NCBI RefSeq assembly: GCF_964213995.1
Contig: NC_135808.1
Span: 25,172,001-25,236,000, forward strand
Reading direction: 5' to 3'
DNA length: 64,000 bases
Origin: Mustelus asterias
Lineage: Eukaryota
Below, in pieces: positions 1,328 to 63,247 of this stretch. The notes below the pieces were generated by a model, which searched no databases, was not told the origin of the DNA, and worked only from the letters and a program-made list of their open reading frames with translations. The translations under genes were made by a program, and so were the position numbers. Position 1 is the stretch's first letter; the number at the start of each line of letters is the position of its first letter.

Positions 1328-2734
1328 TTATCTTGTCGCACCAATGTTCTTGTACTGACAGATAAGGAGATGCTTGAAGGTTTTCTTGAAGGAAGGGTTA
1401 CACAGGGCGTAGCATGCTGGGTTGATTGTACTGTTGATATATGCGAGCCAAAATCCAATAGTCCAGACATTGCTCGGGACACAGGTTGAACAGAAAGTGT
1501 TAATGAGCACTGTGACGAAATATGGGCTCCACGTAATGATAAATGCCAGGAGAATGGCCAAGATGGTTCGAGTCACTTTCTCCCCTCGAGATACAGCTCC
1601 CTTCTTCTTGTTCACAGGGGCATTGGCCATTATAATAATTTTATGGTCTGCTCTCTTGTCCCTTTCATTCCCATTCTTGCCTTTGAAACCTGGAACTTTT
1701 CTTTCAGCGGTATCACAGTCACTTTTCTGATATTTGCGAACAACCTTTATGAAAGTAAGTTTGGGGTAATCCATCCTGGAACTGCTTTGAGCATCACAAA
1801 TATTTCTGCACCCGTGCATGGTTCCTTCATCCTTCCCCTTTGCTGATACCACGCTGGACGATGTTGACTCTTTGGATAATTCAATCTCATCTCCTTGGCA
1901 ACAATTCTCAATTGTTATTTCGTCAGTTATTATGTCATTTTGCATTTTTACATTTGCCAACCCATTAGGAACATAGAACATGTTGCAATTATTCGGTTTC
2001 ATTATTTTGCCCTTCACCTGACTCTGAGTAGCTGTGTCTTTGCTTGACCCAGTCTCTTTATTACCCTCCTTGACACGACTTTTGCTAGCATGAGATATTT
2101 GCACATATAATATCACCATGATAGTAACAGGGAGGTAGAAGGCAACCAAGGCAGTGCCGAACGTGACAGCTGGATTGGAGAATAACTGCACATAACACTC
2201 GCCCTCACGGACTGTCCGCTCCCCTACGATGAACTGCCAGAAGAGAATGGCAGGAGCCCACATGATAAAGGACACCACCCAAACAGCTGCGATCATAATC
2301 CCTGCCACCTTGGCTGTTCTCTTCACGGGGTAGCTGAGGGGCTTTGTCACGCAGAAGTAGCGGTCAAAGCTAATGACAAGGAGGTTCATGCCAGAAGCAT
2401 TGCTAGCAACATAATCTAGAGCAAGCCACAAATCACATACAACAGGGCCCAACGGCCAGTAGCCAACAACAGTGTAAATGGTGTACAAATTCATAGAGAA
2501 CAAACCGATAAACAAATCAGCACAGGCTAAGCTGAAAAGAAAGTAGTTGTTAATGGTTTGTAAATGTCTGTTTACTTTTATAGACACAATAACGAGAACG
2601 TTTCCAATAATTGTCACCAAGCTTAAAGATCCTGTCACAATCACAATGAAGACCACTTCGACTGTATTGTAAGAACTCCCTCTTTCAGCAGTTTGATTGT
2701 TGAGAGATTCACCTATCTGTGTTGAGTTTTCCAT
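1328..2734 (-). CDS. CHRM2: Muscarinic acetylcholine receptor M2-like, copy A (468 aa, single coding exon, altered orthosteric pocket)
   Basis: Intact 7TM ORF with M2 signatures: [82 protein letters not shown] and C-terminal YKNIGATR. Splice acceptor (ttttctacatttag|) 36 nt upstream of the ATG, AG at 2771-2772. Paralog, not necessarily the 1:1 ortholog. Confidence 0.95.
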
Positions 2735-3146
2735 TATTTTACTCTGATGTGTATTTGATACTGACGAGGCCTAAATGTAGAAAATAAAATAATAAACCTG
2801 AACTAGATTTCAGATGTGTTGAAGTCAAAAGACTTGATGATTGAAGTTCTACCTGTAAGATAATAAAAGCACATATTTCCTTCGAAACTTTAATATCTTC
2901 CCGGGCCGTAATGTAATCTAATAACACATATAATGCAATTATATCTAATAGTTAGTTGCTTGTGTCAAACCTGTCCACCAGGATTTTGCTTTCAATGATC
3001 AATTTCTCATAGTTCAGAAAGTTTTGTGTTTTGCAAACTTCTAACTATTACGGTAGAATACATTTACCCTTTTTATTCATTTAAGTTCATGCATCCAGAC
3101 CACAAACACAAGTAAAAGCTGAAAGTTTCAATCACTGAGGGAAGTG

Positions 3147-6000: not shown

Positions 6001-7120
6001 AACAAAGAACAAAGAAAAGAACAACACAGGACATTTGACCGCCCAAGCCTATCCCGATGATGATGCCCTATCTAAACTAAAAAAAACCTTCCACCATTAC
6101 TCCAGTCGTATCCCGCTATTCCCTCCCTATTCGTGTAACCATCCAGATGCCTCTTAAATGTTGCTAATGTGCCTGCTTCCACCAGCTCCTCTGGCATCGC
6201 ATTCCATGCACCCACCACTCTCTGCATGAAAAAGCTCCCCCGCACATCTCGCTTAAACTTTCCCCCTCTCACCTTAAATCTGTGCCCCCTTGTAATTGAT
6301 GTGTCCAACCTTGGGGAAAGCTTCTGACTATCCATCCTGCCTATGCCTCTCATTATTTTGTAGATCTTTATCAGGTATCCCCTCAGCATCCGTCTTTCCA
6401 GTGAAAACAATCCTAGTTTATTCAACCTCTCACAATGAACACCCTCGAGATCAGGCAACATCCTGGTGAACCTCCTTTGCACTCTCTGCAAAGTTTCCAC
6501 GTCCTTCCCGTAATGTGGTGACCAGAACTGTACGCAATACTCCAAATGTGGCATAACCAAGGTTTTCCATAGGTGCAACATGATTCAACAACTGTTGTAT
6601 TCAAAGCCTCGGCTGATGAAGGCAAGCATGCCATATGCGTGCTTAATCACCTTGGCCACCTGTGTTGCCACTTTTAGGAAACGGTGGACCTGCACGACCA
6701 GATCACTCTATGTCAATGTTCCTAAGGGTTCTGCCATTTTTAGTATAATTCACACCTAAATTTGATCCTCCAAAATGCATCACCTCACATTTGTCCTGAT
6801 TATACCCCCTCTGCCATTTCTGTGCCCAGGTCTCAAATCTACCTATATCCTGTTGTATCCTCTGACAATCCCCCGCACTATCAGCAACTCCACTAATCTT
6901 CGTGTCATCTGCAAATTTGCTAATCAGACCACCCATATTTTCCTGCAGATCATTTGCATCTACTGCAAACAACTGAGATCCCAACACTGATCCTTGTGGA
7001 ACACCACTAGCTACAGATCTCCATTCTGAAAGGCACCTTTCCACCACTATTCTGTCTTACTCCTTACTTCTCTAACCTAGCCAGTTCTGTGTTCATTTAG
7101 GCAGCCCGAATTCCATGCGA
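6001..7120 (-). mobile_element. CR1 LINE 3' fragment (RT and C-terminus, frameshifted)
   Basis: SGVPQGSVLG, KFADDTK, HLEYCVQFWSPH; tail of short TTCTTTG-type repeats. Confidence 0.9.
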
Positions 7121-7286
7121 TTTTCTTTGAGTTATGACTTCAAATTATTTGTTTTATCCTATTCCGATTTCAGTGCACAACTCATGGTAGCTATCAATGA
7201 TTTACTTCCCATCTGTAAATTTCAAATTCAAAGTGAAGGGCTTTGGTTGTTTTCACATCGTGGTTTGTCTTCTGTGAGAATGGTTC

Positions 7287-7830
7287 AAAGAACAAACAAA
7301 GAACAAAGAACAATACAGCACAGGAACAGGCCCTTCGGCCCTCCAAGCCCGTGCCGCTCCCTGGTCCAAACTAGACCATTCTTTTGTATCCCTCCATTCC
7401 CACTCCGCTCATATGGCCGTCTAGATAAGTTTTAAACGTTCCCAGTGTGTCCGCCTGCACCACCTTGCCTGGCAGCGCATTCCAGGCCCCCAGAACCCTC
7501 TGTGTAAAATATGTCCTTCTGATATCTGTGTTAAACATCCCCCCCTTCACTTTGAACCTATGACCCCTCGTGAACGTCACCACCGACCTGGGGAAAAGCT
7601 TCCCACCGTTCACCCTCTCTATGCCTTTCATAATTTTATACACCTCTATTAAGTCTCCCCTCATCCTCCGTCTTTCCAGGGAGAACAACCCCAGTTTACC
7701 CAATCTCTCCTCATAACTAAGCCCCTCCATACCAGGCAACATCCTGGTAAACCTCCTCTGTACTCTCTCCAAAGCCTCCACGTCCTTCTCGTAGTGTGGC
7801 GACCAGAACTGGACGCAGTATTCCAAATGC
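7287..7830 (-). mobile_element. 5'-truncated CR1 LINE
   Basis: HLEYCVQFWSPHYEKDVEALERVQRRFTRMLPG. Same subfamily as the 3' end of the element at 13485. Confidence 0.9.
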
Positions 7831-8308
7831 AATGTGATTGGCTGCCTGAATTGCTTCATGACACCTGGAGATTGCTTTGATTGGTGCCAAATTAAAGCTG
7901 GCATAGGGAAAGAGGAAATCCAGGGCACAGTGGCCTTTGGATATTGGGGAACTGATTCCTTAGATGTCATTCTTTTCTTGGGCCAGGATTAAAACATTCA
8001 AGTCCTGTAATTACAGAGCGACAGCATGGGCCTGGGGCTGACTATCGGTAACTAACGAGCTCTTTCGGCGGAACTTGTGCTTCCGCTGGCCCCAGAGGAC
8101 TGAATTTTCAAATTTTACAACATACGATTTTGTTTGCATCCTCTGATTGGTTCACCACCATCGCTGAAGATCCCTTAAGGGGACTAGGCAAGTCATATGA
8201 AATGATTCCGAAACAAGGACCCTGGATCGCCAGATGAGATACTCAATAGTTCAGATGAATTTTTCACATGATTCATTGCGAGTAGAATGATCTCTCATTA
8301 CCCCTGTC

Positions 8309-9753: not shown

Positions 9754-10652
9754 TCATTTAATGAATTTAACAAGTTGAGCAAATGGATATTTGACCATAT
9801 ACTTCAACTGCTCTCTGAACTTGTTCTGAGTCACGGCATGAATACAAATATGCATGTAGCAACGCAGGAGCTGCAACATGAACCCTATTTCCTGTAGACA
9901 GTGAGACACGAATAGAGACTCATAACCTAAAAACCACATTCGAATCCATATAGAATGGAACACATGTACTGACCATAACAAGATGAAATTCCCAGAGACA
10001 ACAAACAATAAAATGATGGATTTTCTATGACTCTCCACCTCTGGGACTCTGGGACTCTCCCTACTGCTGCGATCCTGGAGTCTCCTTCGGACCCCATTGG
10101 GCAATAAAATGTGTCCAACGGTGAAAGCATTGAGAAGCAGAATCAGAAGAAAAGGGACTCCCGGTGTAAGAATGTAGTGGATGAATTCGGCCAGTAACCA
10201 GATTCGTGATTGTTTAATATTGTTTGGTATGGAACAAAGCCAGGGGGAATTCCACAGCCGAAATTCGTCTATGAGCATGAAATACCATGTGACATCCTTT
10301 AAGGAAATCAGCGCCGTCACTGTCGAAAGAGCCAAAACTGCTGTTTTCTCGGTGCAATATTTACTTTTCAGCTTCTCACAAAAAATTGCCACAAACCGAT
10401 CCATGGTGAAAGTGACGGTGAACCAGATAGAACAGTCTCTGGCTACATGAAGCAGAGTGATGTGGATATTGCATGCGTGGATGACATACACGAAAATAAA
10501 ATGTTTCTGCTCAACAATCAGAATGTGTCTTATTGCCATGTCGATAATAACAAACAGTAGATCCACTGCTGCCATGGCCACCAGATAACGTGTAACACAT
10601 TTGGAGAGACTACACTTTCCCCGGGACAGGATCACCATTGTCACTACGTTAA
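9754..10652 (-). CDS. GPR139-like orphan GPCR copy A, coding exon 2 (333 aa spliced)
   Basis: Acceptor tctatctctttctcatag|TT AAC GTA. 899-nt open frame with ILSRGKCSLSKCVTRYLVAMAAVDLL, TFTMDRFVAI and KFREQL, typical of the expanded chondrichthyan GPR139-like family. Confidence 0.9.
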
Positions 10653-13096: not shown

Positions 13097-13199
13097 GTGG
13101 AACACCAATAGCAGCAAGGAGACGGTAGTAAATCTTTTCTAAGTCATTAATGAAATGAATTATCTTCAATTGGTCCATTCCCGTGGAGCTACTGATCAT
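13097..13199 (-). CDS. GPR139-like orphan GPCR copy A, coding exon 1
   Basis: 103 nt encoding MISSSTGMDQLKIIHFINDLEKIYYRLLAAIGVP plus 1 nt, followed by a consensus donor C|GTAAGT (13091-13096). The phase-1 join to exon 2 restores TM1 (GVPLNVVTMVIL). The second Met is an alternative start. Confidence 0.88.
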
Positions 13200-13385
13200 T
13201 GTTCATGTCAAAGGAGATGTTCCCGCTCACATTGAAAGGTGTCTCTCATTAATAGCAGAGTGGAGCCCTCAAGAGACATAGATCAGCTCCATGGAGACTG
13301 GTATTAATTACAGTCACGGAACAGACAGGTTCAGTTAACCATTTACAATCGAATGTCTTTATCATCACAGCATATACTTCATCAT
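13200..13385 (-). promoter_or_regulatory. Candidate 5'UTR/proximal promoter of GPR139-like A, conserved with 45582-45785 of copy B
   Basis: Colinear non-repeat homology with shared TATTAAT, TCCATGGAG, TTAACC and CAGCATATACTT motifs. Confidence 0.5.
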
Positions 13386-13484: not shown

Positions 13485-16400
13485 AACAAAGAACAAAAGA
13501 ACAAAGAACAATACAGCACAGGAACAGGCCCTTCGACCCTCCAAGTCTGCGCCGCTCATGTGCCCAACTAGACCATTCTTTTGTATCCCTCTATTTCCAG
13601 TCTGTTCATGTGGTTATCTAGATAAGTCTTAAACGATCCCAGCGTGCCCGCCTCAATCACCTTGCTTGGCAGTGCATTCCAGGCCCCCACCACCCTCAGT
13701 GTAAAATACGTCCCCCTGACATCTGTGTTGAACCTTGCCCCCCTCACCTTGAACCCGTAACCCCTTGTGTTCATCACCTCCGACCTGGGAAAAAGCTTCC
13801 CACTGTTCACTCTATCTATGTCCTTCATAATTTTATACACCTCTATTAGGTCACCCCTCATCCTCCGTCTTTCCAGGGAAAACAACCCCAGTTTACCCAA
13901 TCTCTCCTCATAGCGAAGACCCTCCATACCAGGCAACATCCTGGTAAACCTTCTCTGTACTCTCTCCAAAGCCTCCACGTCCTTCTGGTAGCGTGGCGAC
14001 CAGAACTGGATGCAGTATTCCAAATGTGGCCTAACCATCGTTCTATACAGCTGCAACATCATATGCCAACTTTTATATTCTATCCCCTGTCCAATAAAGG
14101 CAAGCATGCCACATATCTTCTTCACCACCCTCTCCACCTGTGCTGCCATCTTTAAGGATCTGTGGACTTGTACACCCAGGTGCCTCTGTGTGTTTATACT
14201 CCTGATGGTTCTGCCATTTATTGTATAGCTCCCTCTTACACTAGATCTACCAAACTGCATCACTTCGCATTTATCTGGATTAAATTCCATCTGCTATTTC
14301 TCCACCCAATGTTCCAGCCTATCTACATGCTGCTGTATTCTCTGACAATGTTCCTCACTATCCGCAACTCCAGCAATCTTCGTGTCATCCGCAAATGTAC
14401 TGATCACACCAGCTACATCTTCCTCCAAATCATTTATATATATATATATATATCACAAACAGCAGAGGTCCCAGAACAGAGCCCTGCAGAACACCACTGG
14501 TCACAGACCTCCAGCCGGAAAAAAGACCCCTCCACTGCTACCGTCTGTCTTCGATGGCTAAGCCAGTTCTCCACCCATCTAGCGAGCTCACCTTTTATCC
14601 TGTGAGATTTAAACTTTTGCACCAGCCTGCCATGAGGGACCTTGTCAAACGCTTTACTAAAATCCATATAGATGACATCCACGGCCCTTCCCTCGTCAAT
14701 CGTTTTAGTCACCTCCTCAAAAAACTCAACCAAATTTGTGAGGCATGACCTCCCTCGTACAAAACCATGCTGTCTATCGCTAATGAGATTATTCAGTTCT
14801 AAATGCGCATATATCCTATCTCTAAGAAGCTTCTCCAACAACTTCCCTATGACAGACGTCAAGCTCACCGGCCTATAATTACCCATGTTATCCTTGCTAC
14901 CCTTCTTAAATAACGGGACCACATTTGCTGTCCTCCAATCCTCTGGGACCTCACCTGTGTCCAGTGAAGAGACAAAGATTTCTGTTAGAGGCCCAGCAAT
15001 TGCATCTCTCGCCTCCCTGAGGAGTCTCGGAAAGAAGTCCTTGGCCCTGGGGATTTGTCGGTCTTAATGCTTCCGTAAAAACCTAACACTTCCTCCCTTG
15101 TAATTGAGATTTTTTCTAACGGGTCAACACATCTCTCTAAGACACTACCAGTCAACATGTCCCTCTCCTTTGTGAATACTGATGAAAAGTATTCGTTTAG
15201 GATCTCACCTACTTCCTTCGGTTCCAAGCATAATTCTCCTTCTTTGTCCCTGGGAGGTCCAATTCTTTCCCTAACAACCCTCTTGTTCCTAACGTATGCC
15301 TTAGGATTCTCCTTAATCCTGTGTGCCAAGGACATTTCGTGACCCCTTTTTGCCCATCTAAGTCCCTGTTTGAGTTCTTTTCTACTTTCTCTGTATTCCT
15401 CCAGTGCTCCATCTGTTTTTAGCTCCCTGGACCTCAGGTATACCTCTTTTTTCTTTTTGATTAGACCCACAATTTAACTGGTTATCCACGGCTCCTGAAT
15501 CCTACCTTTCCTATCCTTCCTCTTTACAGGCACATGCCTGTCCTGCAGACCTATCAACTGCTCCTTAAAAAACTCCCACATGCCAAATGTGGATTTACCC
15601 TCGAACAGCCTCTCCCAATCAACAGCCACCAAATCCTGCCTAAACCGGCTGTAGTTAGCCTTCCCCCAATTCAGCACCTTACCCATAGGACAATATTCAG
15701 CTTTTCCCATTACTGTCCTGAAGTTCACAGAATTGTGTTCACTATTTGCCACATATTCCCCCACTGCAACATTGATGAGCTGACCGGGCTCATTCCCCAG
15801 TACTAGGTCCAGTATAGCCGTCTCTCCAGTTGGACTGTCAACATATTGTTCCAAAGAACCTTCCTGTACGCATTTTATAAATTCTTCCCCGTCCAGGCCC
15901 CCAGCCCTAAGCGATTTCCAGCCTATGTGAGGGAAATTAAAGTCTCCCACTCCAACAACACTATTTCTTCTGCATCTGTACAGAATCTCCTTACATAAGC
16001 GTTCCTCAACGCCCCGTGGGCTGTTGGGAGGCCTGTAGTATACCCCGAGCATAGTGACTGCGCCCTTCCTGTTTCTGAGCTCCACCCAGAGTGACTCGTT
16101 ACCTGACCCTTCCATATTGTCCAGCCTCTGTACCGCTGTAATATGCTCCCTAACCAGCATTGCTACTCCCCCATTTCTCCTAGCCCCTCCTCTGTCTCGC
16201 CTAAAACACTTGTACCCCGGAATATTCAGCTGGCAGTCCTGTCCTTCTTTTAACCAAGTCTGCGTCACTGCAACCACATCCAAGTTCCGCACAAGCATTA
16301 AGGCTCTAAACTCATCTGCCTTGCCCGTGACGCCCTTTGCATTGAAGCAGATGCATTCCAGACCTCCAGGCCCACTGAAGTCTTCTTCCCCCACAATGTC

Positions 16401-21474: not shown

Positions 21475-24400
21475 AGAAACATACATGGAAAATAAAAGCA
21501 TGAGTTGGCCATTCGGCCCTTTGAGCCTGCTCTGCCATTCATTATGATCGTGGTTGATCATCAAATTAAATACCCTGATCCCGCGTTCCCTCCATGTCCC
21601 TTGATCCATTTAGCCCCAAGAGTTATATTTCATTACTTCTTGAAATCACACAACGTTTTAGCATCACATTCATTCCGTGGTTGTGAGTTCCACACATTCG
21701 TCAGCCTCTGGGTGAAGACATTTTTCTGCACCTCAGTTAAACATTGAAAGCTTTTCACCATTCTGGAAGGATTCTACGTTCTAGAGGGATTACCCCCTGT
21801 CCTCAAACTGTGACCCCTAGTTCTGGCCTCCCCCACCTTCGGGAACATTCTTTCTGAATCTACCCTATCGAAACCTGCTAGAATTTTGTACGTTTCAGTA
21901 AGATTACCTCTCACTCTTCTGAACTCCAATGAATATAATCCAAACCGACTTAACCTCTCCTCATATGGCATTCCTGCCATCCCAAGAAGCAGCCTGGTAA
22001 ACCTTCAATGCACTCCTTCTGTAGCAAGAACATTCTTACTCAGATAAGGACACCCAAACTGTAAACAAAATACTCCAGGTGTCACCTCACCAGTAAAATT
22101 GTAGTAAAATATCCCTATTTCTGTATTCAAATCCTCTCGCTATGAAGGCCAACGTGCTATTTCCGTTCTTTATTCCCTGCTGTACCTGCACGCACACATT
22201 CAGTGAATGATGCACGAGGTTTTACCACGTATTCATCTTTTTTCATTCAAATAATAATCTACCATCCTGTCTCTGCTACTAAAGGCGACAACCTCACATT
22301 TATCCAAACGACCCGCTATCCCATTTGCTTTATCATTAGATAGTAAACTGCTATGTCAGACAATTTAAAAAGTATTCTGAAAATCTAAATAAACCACCTC
22401 TCTCTGGTCAACTCGATTATTTACATCCTGAAAGAATTCCAGTAGAATTTTCAAGCATGATTTCCCTTTCATAAATCCACACTGACTGTGTCGATTATAC
22501 CACTGCTTTCCACAACTGCTATGAAATCCTTGATAATGAACTCTAACGCCTTCCTTACTACCGATGTTAGGCTCACTGGTCTACACAAAGGAAGATATTA
22601 ATAACACAAAAAACGGGTGGAACTTGAATCACAGGGGGACCAATATCCTGGCCGGTAGGTTGGCTAAGGCTACTGGGGAGAATTTAAACTAGATAGGTTG
22701 GGGGGAGGGGAGCTAGAAGAGTTGACTGGATCAAGGAACTAATTGATGGGGGGGAGGATGCAGGGGTAAGGGGAATTACAAAATTAATGGTAGAGGAGAG
22801 GGTGCAAGTGAATGAAGGCGGTAATTTAGATAAGGGAGTAGAGGGAGAGGGTGTTCGTGACTCATCAAAGCGGGTCCAGATAAAAGCTGGAATAAGGACA
22901 CTTTGCCTGAATGCACGAAGCATTCGGAACAAGGTAAATGAGTTGATGGTGCAAATCAGCACAAGTGGGTACGATCTAGTGGCCATTACAGAAACGTGGC
23001 TGAAAGGTGACCAGGACTGGGAGATGAATATCCAGGGGTATCAGGCGTTTAGGAAGAATAGACAGGAAGGAAAAGGTGGTGGGGTCGCGCTATCAATAAG
23101 AGATAATATCAGGGTAGTACTGAGGGATGACATAGGCTCTGAGGAACAAAACGTGGAATCATTATGGGTAGAGATGAGGAATAGTAGAGGGAGAAAGACA
23201 CTAGTAGGTGTGGTATATAGGCCCCCAAATAATAATGTTGAGGTAGGGAGGGCTATAAACAAGCAGATAAGGGATGCGTGTAAAAACGGAACGGCAATAA
23301 TCATGGGGGACTTCAACATGCACATTGACTGGCAGACTCAAGTCGGTAAGGTTGGAATGGAGGAAGAGTTCGTAGAATGCTGTCGGGATAGTTGCCTTGA
23401 ACAGCATGTTACGGAACCGACGAGGGAACGAGCTATTTTGGATCTGCTATTGTGTAACGAGGTAGGTAGAATTAAGGATCTTATTGTGAAGGACCCTCTT
23501 GGGTCTAGTGACCACAATATGGTCGAATTTCTGATTCAGATGGAAGAGGAGAAAGTTTGGTCCCAAACCAGTGTCCTCTGTTTGAACAGAGGGAAATATG
23601 ATAGGATGAATTGGCTAAGGTAGGCTGGGAGAGCAGGCTGGCAGGTAGGATAGCTGAGGAACAGTGGAGGATTTTTAAGGAGATCCTTTTCAGTTCTCAG
23701 CAAAAATATATTCCAGCAAAAAACAAGGATTGTAAGAAAAGGGAGAACCAGCCGTGGATAACGAAGGAAATAAAGGAGAGTATTAAAATAAAAACAGCTG
23801 CGTACAGAGTGGCCAAAAATAGTGGAGAAACAAGTGATTGGGAAAAATTTAAGAAACAACAAAGAGAGACTAAGAAAGCGATAAAGAAAGGAAGGATAGA
23901 CTATGAAGCTCGGCTAGCAATTAATATAAAAAATGATAGTAAAAGTTTTTATAAATATATAAAAAGGAATAGAGTGGCTAGAGTGAATGTTGGACCCTTG
24001 GAGGACGAGAGGGGGGAGTTAATAATGGGAAATGAGGATATGGCTGAGTCTTTAAATAAGTTTTTTGTGTCGGTCTTCACGGTGGAGGACACAAATAGTT
24101 TACCAAATATTAACGATAGAGGGTTGGCAGCAGGAGAAATACTTAATACAATTAATGTTACCAGAGAGGCAGTGCTGGGTAGACTAATGGGACTGCAGGT
24201 GGACAAGTCCCCGGGTCCGGATGGAATGCATCCCAGGGTATTGAAAGAAATGTCAGAGGTAATAGTGGATGCGTTAGTGATTATTTATCAAAACTCGTTG
24301 CATTCTGGGGTAGTGCCGGTTGATTGGAAAACGGCTAATGTTACGCCGCTGTTTAAAAAAGGAAGGAGACAAAAGGCGAGTAACTATAGGCCGGTCAGCT

Positions 24401-26880
24401 TAACGTCTGTAGTAGGGAAAATGCTGGAATCCATAAATTAAGAGGAGATAGCAGGGCATCTGGATAGAAATTGTTCGATCAATCAGACGCAGCATGGATT
24501 CATGAGGGGAAAGTCGTGCTTGACGAACATGTTGGATTTTTATGAAGATGTGACTAGGGCGGTTGATGGAGGAGCACCGGTGGATGCGGTGTTTTTGGAT
24601 TTCCAAAAGGCATTTGATAAGGTGCACCATAAAAGGCTGCTGAAGAAGATTAGGGCACACGGAGTTGGGGGTAGTGTGTTAAAGTGGATTGGGGACTGGC
24701 TATCCGACAGGAAGCAAAGAGTCGGAATAAATGGGTGTTTTTCCGGTTGGAGGAAGGTAACTAGTGGCGTGCCGCAGGGATCGGTACTCGGGCCGCAACT
24801 ATTTACCATTTATATAGATGATCTGGAGGAGGGGACAGAGTGTAGGGTAACGAAGTTTGCAGACGACACAAAGATAAGTGGAAAAGTGAATGGTGTGGAG
24901 GACGGAGAAGATCTGCAGAGAGATTTGGACAGTCTGATTGAGTGGGCGAGGATATGGCAAATGGAGTATAACGTTGATAAATGCGAGGTTATACACTTTG
25001 GAGGAAATAATAACAAATGGGATTACTATCTCAATGGAAACAAATTAAAACATGCTACCGTGCAAAGGGACCTGGGGGTCCTTGTGCATGAGACGCAAAA
25101 GCCCAGTCTGCAGGTACAACAGGTGATCAAGAAGGCAAATGGGATGTTGGCCTATATTGCGAGGGGGATAGAATATAAAAGCAGGGATGTCTTGATGCAC
25201 CTGTACAGGGCATTGGTGAGGCCGCAGCTGGAATACTGTGTGCAGTATTGGTCCCCTTATATGAGGAAGGATATATTGGCATTGGAGGGAGTGCAGAGAA
25301 GGTTCACCAGGTTGATACCGGAGATGAGGGGTTTGGATTATGAGGAGAGGCTGAGGAGATTGGGTTTGTACTCGTTGGAGTTTAGAAGGATGAGGGGGGA
25401 TCTTATGGAGACTCATAAGATAATGCGGGGGCTGGATAGGGTGGAGGCGGAGAGATTATTTCCACTTAGTAAGGAAGTTAAAACTAGAGGACACAGCCTC
25501 AAAATAAAGGGGGGTCGGTTTGAGACAGAGTTGAGGAGGAACTTCTTCTCCCAGAGTTTGGTGAATCTCTGGAATTCTCTGCCCACTGAGGTGGTGGAGG
25601 CTACCTCGCTGAATATGTTTAAAACGCGGATGGATGGATTCCTGATCGGTAAGGGAATTAAGGGTTATGGGGATCAGGCGGGTGAGTGGTACTGATCCAC
25701 GTCAGATCAGCCATGATCTTATTGAATGGCGGGGCAGGCTCGGGGGGCTAGATGGCCTACTCCTGCTCCTATTTCTTATGTTCTTATGTTCTTAACATAC
25801 CGGCAGTTTTGAGAAACACATATTTTAGTGACGAGGTCACTCGCTTGTCTATATTACTCTGTTTTCACTCGACCTCAATTTTTAAACAGTAGGCTCACGT
25901 TAGCTCCTTCGATTCTGTAGGAATAATTCCAGAATCCAACGAATTTTCGAAAATAACCACCCATGCATCTATTATTTCTCGCGCCACTTTCATAAGTAAT
26001 ATGGGGTCAAGATTATCAGACCATTTATCCGCGCTTCTTCCCATTAATTTCCCCAAGCCATTTCTCTACAAATACTGATTTCCTTCAGATTCTCACTGAA
26101 ACGTGTGTTTCTCAGAACTTCTGGCACAACAGTTATGTCTTTCTTTGTGATGAGGGAAAAAAATGCGAATTTATTTCCTCAACCATTTGTTGAGACCGTT
26201 TTCTTTATTTCCACGTTTCTGATTGTAAGTGGACTATCTTCACTTTTGATTGCCCTTCCCCCTTTATATACCCATAGAAACGTTTACACTTGTTCCCTCT
26301 TAACTTACTTTCCTACTCAAATTCCCCCTTCTGGATAAATGGATTGGCCCACCTTTGCTGAATTTTAAACCATTCCTAATCTGCAGGTCTATTCCTTGTT
26401 CTTGCTAATTTGTATGCTTCTTATTTGAATCTAATATTATCTCTGATTTCCCTTGGAAGCCATGGTTTGACCTCAGTTCCATTTCCACTCTTGTGCCAAA
26501 TAGGAATAAACAACTTTTGGAGATCACCTATGTGTCTCTTGAATGCATGCCATTGCCTTTCTCCTGTTCTTCCTACAGCAGTATTTCCCAGTCCATCATA
26601 GCCAATTCGTGATTCATGAAATCATAGTTTCCTTTTATGGGATTCTGGCCCTGGTCTAAGAGCCAATTACCTCACTGTCCACGTTGATAAGGACTTCCAT
26701 CATACTATCGTCTCTCTTCCACAAGGGTTCTCTTACAACCAGTTGCCAACTAATCCTTTCTCATTGCACAATATTCAATCCAAGAATGACCTGTTGCTTT
26801 GTTGGTTCCTCAACATGTTGGTCCAGAAACCATTCGGTATACATTCCAGAAATTCCTCCTCAACTATACTGTGACTAATT
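21475..26880 (-). mobile_element. Older CR1 LINE (21475-22585 and 25800-26880) split by a younger plus-strand CR1
   Basis: YEERLSRFGLYSLEFRRVRG in the left part. The decayed minus-strand CR1 sequence resumes after 25800. Confidence 0.7.
22610..25793 (+). mobile_element. Young CR1 LINE (end of ORF1 and complete ORF2 with two disruptions)
   Basis: CLNARSIRNK, GVVYRPPN, GDFN, SDHN endonuclease motifs; RT GVPQGSVLGP/KFADDTK; frame breaks near 23610 and 24440; (TTCTTATG)n tail. Confidence 0.95.
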
Positions 26881-31884: not shown

Positions 31885-33309
31885 CTATCTTGCTGTACGG
31901 ATGTTTCTGTACTGACACAGTAGAAGATGCTTGAAGGTTTTCTTGAAGATAGGATTACACAATGCGTAGCATGCTGGGTTGATCGTGCTGTTTACATAAA
32001 CGAGCCAGTATCCAGTAATCCAGACTGTGTTGGGGACACAGATTGAACAGAACGTGTTAATAAGCACCATGGCAAAGTATGGGCTCCAGGTGATGATAAA
32101 TGCCAGGAGAATAGCCAGGATGGTTCGAGTCACTTTCTCCTCTCGTGATCCTGCTCCCTTCTTCTTGTTGTTCAAAGGGACATTGGCCATTGTAATAATC
32201 TTATTGTCTACCCTGCTTTCTCTGTCATCCCCATTATTACCATTGAGACCTGACACTCTTCTTTCCGTAGGACCACAGTCGTCACTGGATGTAGCTTTGC
32301 TCACTATCTTTATGATCGAGAGTTCGGAGTTCTTCATTGTGAAAGTGCTCTGAGCATCATAAACATTCCTGCTCCCTTGTATGGTCCCTTCATCCTTCGG
32401 GTTTGATTGTGCAACACTGGGCGATGTTGACCCATTGGGGAGACCCTTCTCTCCTGCTTGGCCACACTTATTATTTGTTATTTCACTAATTATTTTGCCA
32501 TTTTGTACTGTGACATGTGCCAACAGATGAGGACCATTTGCTATGTTGTTCTTATTTTGTTTGAGTATTTTGCTCTTTATCAAACTGCAAATAACAGCGT
32601 ACTTGTTTGATTCGGTTTCCTTTTTATCCTCCTTTACACGACTCTTGCTAGCACGTGATATTTGCACGTACAAAATCACCATGATAATAACAGGGAGATA
32701 GAAGGCAGCTATTGCAGTGCCAAAAGTGATGGCTGGATTTGTGAGGAACTGCACATAACACTCACCATCACCAACTGTCCGCTGCCCAACGATGAACTGC
32801 CAGAAGAGAATGGCAGGGACCCACAGGATAAACGACAGCATCCAAGCCGCTGCAATCATCATCCCCGCCGTTCTCACTGTTCTATTCACTGGGTAGGTCA
32901 AGGGTTTTGTCACGCAGAAGTAGCGGTCAAAGCTGATGATAAGGAGGTTCATGCCAGAGGCACTACTGGCAACATAATCGACAGCAAGCCACAAGTCACA
33001 TACCACTGTGCCCATCGGCCAGTAGCCAGTAACCGTATAAATTGTGTATAGGTTCATAGAGAATACACCAATAATCAAATCAGCACAGGCCAAGCTGAAA
33101 ATAAAGTAGTTGTTAATGGTTTGCAAATGTTTGTTTACTTTGATTGAAACGATGACTAGAATGTTTCCAATAACTGTTACCAGACTTAAAGGTCCTGTGA
33201 CAATGACAATGAAGACCACTTCGACCATTTTGTAAGGACTCTCTCTTTCCCCACCAAACACGCCTGTTGGGTTGCTGAGAGATTCATTTGCCTCTGTTGA
33301 GTTTTCCAT
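31885..33309 (-). CDS. CHRM2: Muscarinic acetylcholine receptor M2-like, copy B (474 aa from the ATG at 33309)
   Basis: Intact ORF paralogous to copy A. The ATG (MENSTE) aligns with the copy A start, and the acceptor ttttctacatttag| (AG at 33346-33347) is again 36 nt upstream. Confidence 0.95.
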
Positions 33310-41276: not shown

Positions 41277-42175
41277 TCATTTAATGAATGTAAGAAGTTG
41301 AGTGACAGTACAGTTCACCAGATTCTTCAACCTCTCTCTGAACTTGTTCTGAGTCAGGGCATGAATACAAATATGCGTGCAACAACTTAGGAGCTGCAAC
41401 ATGAACCCTATTTCCTGTACACAGTAAGGCATCAATACAGACTCATAGCCAAAGAACCACACACGAACCCCTATAGAGTAGACAACATATGTTGACCATA
41501 ACAAGATGAAATTCCAAGAGAAAACAAAGAATAAAGTAATGGATTTCCTTCGACTCTCCATCTCTGGGTTCCCGGGAAGCTCCCCATTGTTGCAAACATG
41601 GAGTCTTCTCTGCGCTCTGCTGGCCAAAAAAATATGTCCAACCGTGAAAGCATTGAGCAGCAGGATTAGAAGAAATGGGATTCCCGGACTGAGAATGTAG
41701 TGAAGAAATTCGACGAGTGACCAGACCCCTGGTTCGATAATAGTGCTGGGTACGGAACAAAGCCAGCTGGCGTTCCACAGCCAAAAAGGAACTGTAAGCA
41801 TAAAATACGACATGATGCCCTTTAGACAGCTCAGTGCTGTCACAGTACCAAGAGCAAAAATTGCAGTTTTCTCTGTGCAATACCTAATTTTCAGCTTCTG
41901 ACAAGTAATTGCCACAAATCGATCAAAGGTGAAAGTGACGGTGAAACAGACAGAACAGTCTCTGGCGACATGGAGCAGAATTACGTGAACATTGCACATG
42001 GGGATGACATGCACGACAAGTAAATGCTTCTGATCAATAATCGGAATGTGTCTTATTATCATGTTGGTAATAACAAACAGTATATCCACCGCTGCCATGG
42101 CCACCAGATAACGTGTAACGCATTTGGAGAGTCTACACTTTCCCCGAGACAGGATCACGATTGTCACTATGTTAA
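41277..42175 (-). CDS. GPR139-like orphan GPCR copy B, coding exon 2 (333 aa spliced)
   Basis: Acceptor tatctctttctcgtag|TT AAC ATA. 899-nt open frame, the same length as copy A, with TFTFDRFVAI. Confidence 0.9.
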
Positions 42176-54441: not shown

Positions 54442-55857
54442 CTATCTTGTTGCAGCAATATTATTGTACTGACATAAGAGAAGATGTTTGAACGTTTTCT
54501 TGAACGTAGCATTACATAATGCGTAGCATGCTGGGTTGATGGTACTATTGATGTAGCAGAGCCAGTATCCAATAATCCAGAATGTGTTGGGGACGCAGAT
54601 TGAACAGAAGGTGTCAACAAGTACCATGACATTGTAGGGGGCCCAGGTGATGATAAATGCCAGCAGTATGGCTAGGATGGTCTTAGTTACCTTTTTCTCT
54701 CGAGATGCAGCTCCTTTCTTCTTCTTGGCAGGGACATTGGACAACGTAACAATCTCATTGTCTGCTCTGATTTCTCTGGCATTACTATTCCCGCTGCCAC
54801 TACCTCGCATGATACCTGTTATGCTGCCACAATCATTCTTTACAGATGTTCGAGTTGTTTTTAAGCAGGAGAGTTTGGAGCTGTCCATCCTAAAAGAGCT
54901 TTGTGTAGTAGAGATGGTTGTACTCTCTTCTACCGCCCCTTTCTCCTCTTCCATTTTTTGGACCCCACTTGGAGATTTTGACTCATTGTAGAGTTCCTTC
55001 TTCTCTTGGCTACAAGTATTAATTATTATTTCTCCAGTCATTTTGCCATTTTGCAGTTTGACTTGTGACAAATGAGCCGAATTATCTGAAATGCTGTTTT
55101 TGTTCAGGTCCATTGTCTTGCCCTTCGCTGGAGTGTGTGAAATGATTTCCTTGCTTGATTCATACTCCTGTGTATACTCTTTCATTCGGCTTTTACTGGC
55201 ACGAGATATTTGCATGTATAAAATCACCATGATAACGACAGGGAGATAAAAGGCAGCCACAGCCGTGCCAAAAGTGACAGCTGGATTTGAGAAGAACTGT
55301 ATATAACACTCACCCGCAATAACTGTCCGCTCCCCTGTGATGAATTGCCAGAAGAGAATCGCAGGAGCCCACAAAACAAACGACAGCACCCAAGCAGCTG
55401 CGACCATCATCGCTGCCATCTTCGCTGTTCTATTCACTGGGTAACTCAGTGGCTTTGTCACGCAGAAGTAGCGGTCAAAGCTGATGACTAGGAGGTTCAT
55501 GGCAGATGCATTGCTGACAACATAATCTAGCGCGAGCCACAAATCACATACCACTGGACCCAATGGCCAGTAGCCCATTACAATGTAAGTGGTGTACAGA
55601 TTCATGGAGAACACGCCAATAATCAAATCAGCACAGGCTAAGCTGAAAATAAAGTAATTGTTAATAGTTTGTAAATGTCTGTTTACTTTGATAGAAACGA
55701 TGACCAGTATGTTTCCAATAATTGTCACCAAGCTTAAACATCCTGTCAAAATCACAATGAAAACCACTTCGATTGTTTTGTAATGACTTTCTCTTTCAAT
55801 ATCGAACAAGCCTGTTAGGTTGCCGTGAGTTTCATTTATTTCTGTTGAGTTTGCCAT
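54442..55857 (-). CDS. CHRM2: Muscarinic acetylcholine receptor M2-like, copy C (471 aa from the ATG at 55857, near-canonical pocket)
   Basis: Intact ORF with [20 protein letters not shown] and [31 protein letters not shown], essentially as in mammalian M2. The ATG (MANSTE) aligns with the A and B starts. Confidence 0.95.
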
Positions 55858-58608: not shown

Positions 58609-59537
58609 TTAGCGTTGATGTTGGAAATTATTCACTCTTTTCACCATAAATTTCGCAATTTGAGAACAGAGATATTTGGACATATTCTTAAACTGCTCTC
58701 TGAACTTTGTCTGAGTCGCAGCATAAACGCAAGTGTTTGTGCAACAATTCAGGAGCTGAAGGTTGAATCCTATTTCTTGGACATTATCGGTCAACAGTAC
58801 TGACCCATACCCAAAAAAAGACATTTTAACCCATACATAATACATAATATATATTGAACAAGACAGGATGAAATTTCCAGAGATTAACAGCAGTAAAAAT
58901 ATATAATTTCTTCTGCTCTCTATCTCTAGGTCTGTGAGATTTTCCTTACTGCTGTGACCCTCAAGACTCCTGTGGGTTCTGTCGGAGAATAAAATATGTC
59001 CAACAGTTAAAACACTGAACAGCAGAATTAAAACATATGGGACACCCAGGGTGAGAATATCGTGAATGAGAATGACTGTGAACCAGCCTTGCAATTCCGG
59101 AACATTGTTTGGTACAGAACAAAACCAGGGGATGTACCACAGTCCATTCTGATCTGTTAATACAAAATGCCACATTGTAGCCTTTAAACAACACAAAAGT
59201 ATCACTATTCCCAGAGCTGCAACCGCCGTTTTCTCACTGCAATATTTCCTTTTCAGCTCCTTGCAGTAAATGGCCACAAATCCATTAAAAGTGAAAGTGA
59301 CAGTGAACCAGGCAGAAGAGTCTGCGGTTGCATAAAGCAGGGTGCCAAGGACATTGCACATGGGGACGTGATAGTCAAAAAGAAACTCTTCCTGATAGAC
59401 TGTCAGAATGCTCCTCATTATCAGGTTGATAATTATTACCAGCAGGTCTGCTGCTTCGATGGCCACCAGGTAGCATGTAAAACCCTTCGAGAGACCACAC
59501 TTTCCCCGCAACAGTATCACAATTGTCACTACGTTAA
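58609..59537 (-). CDS. GPR139-like orphan GPCR copy C, coding exon 2 (exon 1 not found, presumably beyond the window end)
   Basis: Acceptor ttccctctttctcgtag|TT AAC GTA. Open frame with ILLRGKCGLSKGFTCYLVAIEAADLL and NTCVYAATQTKFREQF. The DRF motif is replaced by NGF, so function is uncertain. Confidence 0.8.
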
Positions 59538-61127: not shown

Positions 61128-63140
61128 GGGGCGGCATATTGGCACAGTGGTTAGCACTGCTGTCTCATAGCACCAGGGTTCAATTCCAGCCCCAGGTTAC
61201 GCTCTGTGTTGAGCTTGCACGTTCTCCCCGTGTTTGCGTGGGTTTCCTCCGGTTTCCTCCCACAATTCTAAGATATGCTTTACCGAATATTAAATATAGA
61301 GGGTTGGTAGGAGGAGAGGTACTCATTACAATTAATGTTACCAGGGAGGCAGTGCTTGGTAGACTAACGGGACTGAAGGTGGACAAGTCCCCGGGCCCGG
61401 ATGGAATGCATCCCAGGGTACTGAAAGAAATGTAAGAGGTAATAGCGGATGCGTTAGTGGTTATTTATCAAAATTCGTTGGATTCTGGGGTAGTGCCGGC
61501 GGATTGGAAAACGGCTAATGTTACGCCGCTGTTTAAAAAAGGAAATAGACAAATGGCGGGTAACTACAGGCTGGTTAGCTTAACGTCTGTAGTTGGGAAA
61601 ATGCTGGAATCCATCAGTGAAGAAGAAATAGTAGGCCATCTGGATAAGAATGGTTTGATTAAGTAGATGCAGCATGGATTCATGAGGGGAAAGTCGTGCT
61701 TGATGAACTTGTTGGATTTTTATGAAGGTGTGACTAGTGCGGTTGACGGAGGGGAACCGGTGGATGCCATGTTTTTGGATTTCCAAAAGGCGTTTGATAA
61801 GGTGCCTCACAAAAGATTGCTGAAGAAGGTTGGGTCACGCGGAGTTGGGTGTAGGGTGTTAGCATGGATTGGGGATTGGCTATCCGACAGGAAGCAAAGA
61901 GTCGGAATAAATGGGTGCTTTTCTGGTTGGCAGATGGTAACTAGTGGCGTGCCGCAGGGATCGGTACTGGGGCCTCAACTATTTACCATTTATATAAACA
62001 ATCTGGAGGAGGGGACTGAGTGTAGGGTAACAAAGTTTGCAGACGACACAAAGATAAGTGGAAAAGTGAATCGTGTGGAGGGCGTACAAGGTCTGCAGAG
62101 AGATTTGGACAGGCTGAGTGAGTGGGCAAGGATCTGGCAGATGGAGTATAACGTTAACAAATGCGAGGTTATTCACTTTGGAAGAAATAATAACAAATTG
62201 GATTATTATCTAAATGGAAAGAAATTACAACATGCTGCTGTGCAGAGGGACCTGGGGGTCCTTGTGCATGAGACGCAAAAACCCAGTCTGCAGGTGCAAC
62301 AGGTGATCAAGAAGGCAAATGGGATGTTGGCCTATATCGTAAGGGGGATAGAATATAAAAGCAGAGATGTCTTGCTGCATCTGTACAGGGCATTGGTGAG
62401 GCCGCAGCTGGAATACTTTGTGCAGTATTGGTCCCCTTATTTGCGGAAGGATATATTGGCCTTGGAGGGAGTGCAGAGAAGGTTCAGCAGGTTGATACCA
62501 GAGATGAGGGGTGTTGATTATGAGGAGAGACTGGGCAGATTGGGTTTGTATTCGTTGGAATTTAGAAGGCTGAGGGGGGATCTTATAGAGACCTATAAGA
62601 TAATGAAGGGGCTGGATAGGGTAGAGATGGAGAGATTCTTTCCACTTAGAAAGGAAACTAGAACTAGAGGGCACAGCCTCAAAATAAAGTGGGGTCGGTT
62701 TAGGACAGAGTTGAGGAGGAGGAGGAACTTCTTCTCTCAGAGGGTGGTGAATCTCTGGAATTCTCTTCCCACTGAAGTGGTGGAGGCTACCTCGTTCAAT
62801 ATGTTTAAATCACAGATAGATGGATTCCTGATTGGTAAGGGAATTAGTGGTTATAGGGATCAGTGGCGGGTAAGTGGAACTGATCCACTTCAGATCAGCC
62901 ATGATCTTATTGAATGGCGGGGCAGGCTCGAGGGGCTCGATGGTCTACTCCTGCTCCTGTTCCTTATGTTCTTATGTTCTTATATGCTGGTTAGGTTAAT
63001 TGGACATGCTAAATTGACCCTTTTTTCAGGGAGAGTATCAGGGTTAATATGTGGGGTTACGGGGATAGGGCCTGGGTGGGATTGTGGTCGATGCAGACTC
63101 GATGGGTCCACTGGCCTCCTTCTGCACTTTTGGGGTATCT
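61128..63140 (+). mobile_element. HE1-type SINE (61128-61279 and 62982-63140) split by a CR1 insertion
   Basis: The two halves rejoin as CCACAATTCTAAGATATGCT|GGTTAGGTTAATTGGACATGC. Confidence 0.85.
61280..62981 (+). mobile_element. 5'-truncated young CR1 LINE with 7-bp target-site duplication ATATGCT
   Basis: RT motifs as in 24100-25793; in-frame stops near 61433 and 61664; (TTCTTATG)n tail; ATATGCT at 61273-61279 and 62982-62988. Confidence 0.93.
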
Positions 63141-63247
63141 ATGAACAAGCAATCTACAAACTGAACGTAGTAAATTAGAGACGGCAGACAATGAGAAAGA
63201 GGTGAATTCTGAGTCATTTAAGATAAATGTTCCAATGTTTCTCTGTG

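Follow-up and report, generated by a model that had tools for sequence, protein, structure and literature searches.

Can a muscarinic receptor whose acetylcholine pocket has been rebuilt still be an acetylcholine receptor? The question is raised by a CHRM2-derived gene, here called copy A, in a 64,000-nucleotide stretch of the Mustelus asterias genome (the window; NC_135808.1, positions 25,172,001 to 25,236,000). Copy A is a single coding exon at 1328..2734 on the minus strand, an uninterrupted open reading frame of 468 amino acids whose best PDB match is human M2 (6u1n, E 2.6e-190) and which matches Pfam 7tm_1 (E 1.4e-65). With residues numbered by alignment to human M2 (PDB 6u1n) and by the residue labels in PMC9870890, the four pocket substitutions announced by the original prediction were all confirmed at the codon level: V3.40G (G115, GGC; 2390..2392) in the connector or pocket floor, N6.52F (F406, TTC; 1517..1519), two base changes from AAY, Y7.39F (F428, TTT; 1451..1453) in the tyrosine lid and C7.42A (A431, GCA; 1442..1444), all on the minus strand. 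E6.30G and K6.31E, which lie where TM6 begins on the cytoplasmic side (1580..1585, minus strand), had gone unremarked.

Around these changes the framework of a class A aminergic receptor is complete, with its 7TM motifs, NPxxY and TM3–ECL2 cysteines. D2.50 (2516-2518), D3.32 (2414-2416), DRY (2363-2365), W6.48 (1529-1531), Y6.51 (1520-1522) and Y7.43 (1439-1441), all on the minus strand, are intact, and so are Y3.33, S3.36, N3.37 and NPACY; the retention of the cation anchor, aromatic residues and activation motifs that had been read from the sequence is thus correct in the open reading frame. In alignment with human M2, copy A also keeps VTIL in TM6 and an M2-type ICL2, which we take to be Gi-type motifs as found in M2 and M4, and it is likely to be a Gi/o-coupled receptor.

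The same pocket narrows the list of suggested ligands. Copy A has T/A/A at 5.42/5.43/5.46, without serines, and Tyr at 6.51, where catecholamine receptors presumably combine Phe6.51-Phe6.52 with TM5 serines; the missing serines argue against catecholamines, which are therefore unlikely among the biogenic amines that had been suggested. No basic residue has been gained at any of 35 pocket and vestibule positions, which argues against TMAO and betaine and leaves both proposals unsupported. The likening of position 6.52 to biogenic-amine receptors holds for the Phe itself but not for its neighbour: copy A carries Tyr6.51-Phe6.52, as does an H2-like receptor of the same genome (L026; the label is our reading), and not the Phe-Phe pair of its 5-HT/adrenergic-like receptors. 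Identity to L026 is only ~34%, however; copy A keeps muscarinic TM3, TM5 and ECL2, and it lacks the TM5 acid that H2 receptors presumably carry.

An assembly error as the source of these changes was rejected, since read contigs match and two catshark orthologues carry the same four residues. Two DNA runs from one sample, perhaps that of the assembly itself, each yield one contig that spans 1000-2240/2250 and so covers the codons in TM6 and TM7; the 3.40 codon is uncovered among the listed long pieces of these runs, and a third DNA run covers 14 of 30 bins, with TM6 and TM7 outside its coverage. The sole mismatch, at position 1344 in the C-tail, where both runs of the one sample read C for A (I464S), is probably an allele.

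The 17 pocket positions considered here, a list that we take from M2 structures and that is partly confirmed against the literature, are canonical in 81/81 non-elasmobranch homologues, drawn from the 120 matches listed, and in the M1, M3, M4 and M5 of M. asterias. The M1, M3 and M5 labels are our reading; M4 adjoins a PTN/MK-family gene. The asserted conservation of N6.52 across muscarinic receptors is borne out by these sequences, and copy A, with 13 residues kept and four changed, departs from the otherwise invariant M1–M5 pocket. Changed sites are more frequent in its pocket (4/17) than in the other invariant core (7/116; Fisher p=0.035), a weak result, given that these very changes led to the choice of copy A and that the pocket list is only partly confirmed. 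The same excess of pocket over non-pocket changes reaches p<0.05 in 9/18 rows, which are related and non-independent, and the enrichment in the two catshark orthologues gives p=0.08. In excerpts of a vertebrate survey (PMC6298421), six acetylcholine-binding residues are conserved in all its sequences, and cartilaginous fish go unmentioned in what those excerpts say on these residues. A pocket regarded as invariant in vertebrates is broken by shark and ray M2 copies. These amount to naturally occurring mutations of the best-studied positions for activation and antagonist binding (3.40, 6.30, 6.48, 6.52, 7.39 and 7.42) and offer a test of how an aminergic pocket changes its ligand. In elasmobranchs, such receptors may also escape experiments that rely on atropine or carbachol.

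Copy A is not the canonical M2 gene of this shark. Fourteen M2-like places (11 intact, 3 broken) lie on its chromosome, C8, between 21.27 and 25.34 Mb, whereas the single-copy, slowly evolving chrm2a locus (L002) is on C9 together with M4, and copy A is its paralogue. Chrm2a and CHRM4 occupy C9 at 36.0 Mb and 81.1 Mb; synteny of chrm2a with PTN was not found, the single PTN/MK-family gene detected being beside CHRM4. Descent of copy A from the CHRM2 lineage is supported by its closest PDB chain (M2), by flanking DNA homologous to chrm2a and by its position in the tree, where 35 galeomorph M2-like rows form one clade (100/96) that is sister to galeomorph chrm2a. This 46-row tree comprises sharks with a chimaera outgroup and was built with four trait columns removed; batoid, bony-vertebrate and M4 rows were placed in separate 65-row trees. 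RefSeq already names these genes 'M2-like', as does the ESM Atlas for an 88-member cluster.

The coding exon was duplicated as DNA. A splice acceptor and a 36-nt leader inherited from the chrm2a intron precede the reading frame of copy A (2735..2790, minus strand; first exon base 2770) in the same context as in chrm2a, and a Stegostoma chrm2a isoform record (P0135) joins at that acceptor point. Both this shared context and the homology of intron-side and flanking DNA of the copies to chrm2a point to duplication as DNA, and the latter led us to reject a retrocopy origin.

Pocket change is a property of the cluster rather than of one gene. Among the 11 intact C8 copies, position 3.40 is altered in all, 6.52 is Phe in seven, 7.42 is changed in six and W6.48 in four, and Y7.39F occurs in two (copy A and L008); further variants include W6.48L/F, N3.37T/S, C7.42F/V/A and A5.46T/S/G. 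The change had been presented as a trait of copy A; it is present there, but the Phe6.52 change is a subfamily trait, common to six other copies and to other sharks. Within the window, the paralogue copy B (31885..33309, minus strand) has V3.40G, N3.37S, N6.52F and C7.42V. Copy C (54442..55857, minus strand) has a near-canonical pocket, with V3.40A only, and had been put forward as the comparator for copy A; it is itself a derived paralogue and not true CHRM2, and the true control is chrm2a on C9.

One-to-one orthologues of copy A were found in the catsharks Scyliorhinus torazame (P0002) and S. canicula (P0003), in a clade with 100/99 support; XP_038671262.1 is a catshark orthologue of copy A. 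All three proteins share G3.40, G6.30, E6.31, F6.52, F7.39 and A7.42, and 16/16 of the pocket sites tabulated on the tree are identical. Between copy A and these orthologues the core is 87-90% identical and ICL3 53-55%, compared with 97% and 88-89% for chrm2a in the same species pairs, so that core divergence is about four times that of chrm2a. In pairwise Nei-Gojobori comparisons with seven paralogues, dN/dS lies at 0.12-0.25 for the core, against 0.41-0.97 for ICL3. By these ratios the core of copy A is under purifying selection; the gene is constrained, yet faster than chrm2a, a speed that fits partial relaxation. Together with the activation motifs and the cation anchor, this selection supports the original view of a signalling-competent receptor that would bind a cationic amine.

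Phe6.52 recurs well beyond Mustelus. It occurs in 22/46 chondrichthyan rows, including lamniform (Cetorhinus, Carcharodon) and orectolobiform (Rhincodon, Hemiscyllium) sharks, and site 6.52 requires six state changes, one of them to His, on the 46-row tree. A single F6.52 clade, a grouping named after an earlier tree had been seen, was rejected by the AU test with 46 rows (p=0.004) and with 42 (p=0.04); within the M. asterias genome alone, a single origin was not rejected (p=0.13). Whale-shark and epaulette-shark receptors have G3.40, G6.30, F6.52 and A7.42 in common with copy A. Full-length proteins (p=0.007) and ICL3 taken separately (p=0.0005) both reject a grouping of copy A with this orectolobiform pair; the TM core by itself does not (p=0.51), and gene conversion or one ancient origin could therefore stand in for convergence. 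Either the shared signature evolved convergently, or it predates the galeomorph orders and gene conversion has blurred its history. CHRM2 has also been amplified separately in stingrays and a skate, many copies having Ser (stingrays) or His (skate) at 6.52. In Hemitrygon akajei and Hypanus sabinus, clusters P0074, P0086 and P0094 hold 9, 8 and 7 M2-like records, some of them isoforms; stingray M2-like records show N6.52S, N3.37Y/S, and S3.36G or A5.43G and are nested in batoid chrm2a.

What such a pocket may bind can be judged against M2 and M3. Excerpts of PMC9870890 describe D3.32 as binding the trimethylammonium group of acetylcholine in M2, Y3.33, Y6.51 and Y7.39 as forming a lid, N6.52 as reaching acetylcholine through water, and V3.40 as belonging to the P5.50-V3.40-F6.44 activation triad. 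N404 of M2 is an activation hotspot, and N404Q lowers Gi efficacy with acetylcholine binding kept or slightly better (PMC11987023, in excerpt). M3 is activated by simple alkyl-trimethylammonium ions without an ester, tetramethylammonium being ~600-fold weaker than acetylcholine, and agonists seldom hydrogen-bond N6.52 in molecular dynamics (PMC11793849). In ticks, a four-residue swap (Y3.33H, S3.36C, TM5 Ala-to-Ile and N6.52H) abolishes atropine block, and the mAChR-B that carries His6.52 with the three other pocket changes is still activated by acetylcholine (PMC13022164). Published data on 6.52 in M2 and in ticks thus favour the altered acetylcholine and atropine pharmacology that had been expected of copy A; for acetylcholine they back a change in efficacy, but, as the tick receptor illustrates, loss of N6.52 alone need not abolish the response. 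By analogy with these mutants, resistance to atropine is the most secure prediction for copy A.

The reading that we prefer, with about even confidence, starts from copy A as one of the intact and conserved extra CHRM2 genes that make up a shark-specific family. The receptor probably couples to Gi/o and responds, without being blocked by atropine, to a tertiary or quaternary amine that is small and hydrophobic; acetylcholine would be a weak agonist at most. The CHRM2 coding exon was copied to C8 as DNA together with its intron acceptor; it sits behind a GPR139-like promoter and first exon, and the three were amplified as one. In the protein, the Asp3.32 salt bridge and the aromatic cage (Y3.33, W6.48, Y6.51, F7.39, Y7.43) would still hold the ammonium head, and Phe6.52 would take away both the water-bridged acetyl hydrogen bond and the atropine/QNB bond and fill that sub-pocket. 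The polar acetyl/atropine sub-site would in this way become hydrophobic and reshaped, with Gly3.40 and Ala7.42 making room. The switches that set efficacy would be altered too, and a loss of efficacy may be compensated by E6.30G. Under its borrowed promoter, the receptor would be made in GPR139-like-expressing cells and not in classical cholinergic targets. A changed ligand is favoured over the rival explanations by the variety of pockets in the cluster, by their conservation and by the retention of a canonical gene.

The strongest of these rivals, which we consider possible though doubtful, is that copy A remains an acetylcholine receptor, retuned to low efficacy or affinity, which atropine does not block; it would then parallel, in a vertebrate, the B-type receptors of protostomes. 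M3 N507 mutants lose far more antagonist affinity than acetylcholine affinity, D3.32, Y3.33, W6.48, Y6.51 and Y7.43 are all kept, and F7.39 can still give a cation-pi contact. The tick receptor and M2 N404Q both point the same way, but Phe, unlike His or Gln, is non-polar, and it is bigger than Asn. The many different pockets among the copies are hard to explain with one ligand, and canonical M2 has been retained.

Considerably less probable is a mainly constitutively active or ligand-independent Gi modulator, in which 3.40, 6.30 and 6.52 retune basal activity and not ligand choice. E6.30 and N6.52 mutants of M1, M3 and M5 can be constitutively active, V3.40 sits in the activation triad, and E6.30G accompanies G3.40 and F6.52 in copy A, in both orthologues and in the two orectolobiform receptors. 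Most F6.52 copies keep E6.30, however (G6.30 occurs in 7/46 rows), and the retention of D3.32 and the aromatic cage in copy A and its orthologues implies a ligand. Equally improbable is a redundant duplicate under relaxed selection and birth-and-death turnover, without a distinct ligand: the three broken C8 places, the fourfold core divergence and the large-scale turnover of the neighbouring GPR139-like family are compatible with it, but the low core dN/dS, the identity of all 16 tabulated pocket sites in orthologues despite the poor conservation of ICL3, and the recurrence of the same two-base N to F change across lineages are not what it would lead one to expect.

The preferred reading, a shark amine sensor derived from M2, can be set beside several known systems. 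Vertebrate CHRM2 (chrm2a; human M2, PDB 6u1n/7t8x) is the direct parent, at 72% identity overall and 85% in the core, with the single coding exon, acceptor, D3.32, most of the tyrosine cage, DRY, NPxxY and Gi-type motifs in common; unlike chrm2a, copy A has substitutions at E6.30 and at four of the 17 invariant pocket positions, lies on another chromosome, is one of many copies and has a GPR139-like promoter ahead of it. Protostome B-type receptors, of which we take Drosophila mAChR-B to be a further example, form a separate clade with His6.52, His3.33 and Cys3.36. Like the tick member, Ir-mAChR-B (PMC13022164), copy A is a natural muscarinic receptor with 6.52 replaced; loss of atropine block is established in the tick receptor and predicted for copy A. 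By contrast, the pocket of copy A combines Y3.33, S3.36 and F6.52 with Ala at 5.43 and 5.46, Phe7.39, Ala7.42 and Gly3.40, and the gene is part of a growing tandem family nested in vertebrate CHRM2. Its family resembles the TAARs and the lamprey TARLLs (PMC8890504, in excerpt) in that the gene of a neuronal aminergic receptor was amplified in tandem, its pockets diversified and D3.32 kept, and they supply a precedent for the role proposed here. Those receptors are related to HTR4 and are shown olfactory amine sensors in that excerpt, whereas the parent of copy A is CHRM2 and its sensory role is a proposal.

The link to a GPR139-like family was seen in the DNA upstream. Upstream of each M2-like copy in the window, and on its strand, lies a GPR139-like 7TM gene, the label coming from Atlas matches of the third family member in the window; the two-exon members lie at 9754-10652, 41277-42155 and 58609-59523, all on the minus strand. 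For copy A, this upstream DNA comprises a conserved promoter element of the GPR139-like family with a TATA-like box (13245..13345, minus strand), exon 1 of 27 codons with a phase-1 GT donor (13097..13178, minus strand), which is a candidate leader for copy A, and an intact 7TM exon 2 (9754..10652, minus strand) between promoter and copy A. Genome-wide, the family has 5612 first-look candidates, of which 133 were scored, all at least 55% identical. Promoter and exon 1 sit 2-12 kb upstream of 11/11 intact and 13/14 total M2-like places on C8, associations that are not independent events because the copies share ancestry. In 5/11 intact copies, promoter and donor persist next to a GPR139-like exon 2 that is truncated or broken, or without that exon altogether. 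The promoter element is present at 3/6 distant GPR139-like loci and absent around chrm2a within the 50 kb upstream and 10 kb downstream scanned.

The duplication unit includes the promoter. As the M2 exon needs an upstream leader exon, it is likely, we infer, to be transcribed from the GPR139-like promoter; in copy A, the intact exon 2 that stands between the two weighs against such use. Exon 1 is in phase 1 and the ancestral acceptor of copy A in phase 0, so that the splice would be out of frame and exon 1 would act as a short upstream frame. In-frame fusion of exon 1 to M2 was discarded as an arrangement common to the copies, given their phases, stops and RefSeq N-termini: phase-compatible acceptors are present in copies A and C, L4-6 and L10 but missing in copy B, L8 and L13, an in-frame stop precedes the ATG in L9, L11 and L13, and the exon-1 peptide begins none of the RefSeq N-termini examined. 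Fragments of reverse transcriptase and endonuclease, in our reading CR1/LINE-like, lie between the modules (window 6072-7970, 13568-16298, 22787-25695 and 61667-63178). No paper on the GPR139-like expansion was found by title or abstract, subscription journals being outside the search. The promoter link offers a handle on this unexplained expansion, in that M2-derived receptors of guessable ligand class would share its cells.

A broader proposal, put forward tentatively and at well below even confidence, is that galeomorph sharks made M2 into a new chemosensory amine-receptor repertoire, by capture of the exon under a GPR139-like promoter and then by repeated Phe6.52 and other pocket changes, with independent amplification and remodelling of CHRM2 in rays. 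If true, the shark repertoire would add one more origin of amine sensing in vertebrates to those of TAARs and lamprey TARLLs. Searches by title or abstract, with subscription journals outside their reach, returned no paper on a shark or ray muscarinic expansion. The word 'muscarinic' is absent from the main text of the whale shark genome paper and of the catshark organ-transcriptome paper (PMC11979771), no match turned up in the 12 of 14 stingray genome supplement files searched, and a search for elasmobranch cholinergic responses that resist atropine found no paper. Copy A is, apparently, an undescribed variant that is real and conserved.

Other copies depart from the parent in different directions. 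L013 (C8:21308176-21309474, minus strand) and Cetorhinus P0011 both have T3.37, F6.48, F6.52 and S5.46, and L013 also has S5.43; on these residues they approach a catecholamine-type pocket and would be better biogenic-amine candidates than copy A. The W6.48 toggle has become Leu in several shark lineages (L009, L010 and L011; Scyliorhinus P0088, P0107, P0119 and P0146) and in a skate (P0100), which carries His6.52 as well. Cetorhinus P0010, an M2-like copy, has Gly at 3.32 and is missing the amine anchor. L005 (C8:21.93 Mb, plus strand) and L006 (C8:24.32 Mb, minus strand) are near-identical inverted duplicates, as are L013 and L014; L014 has a premature TGA, and L013 is intact.
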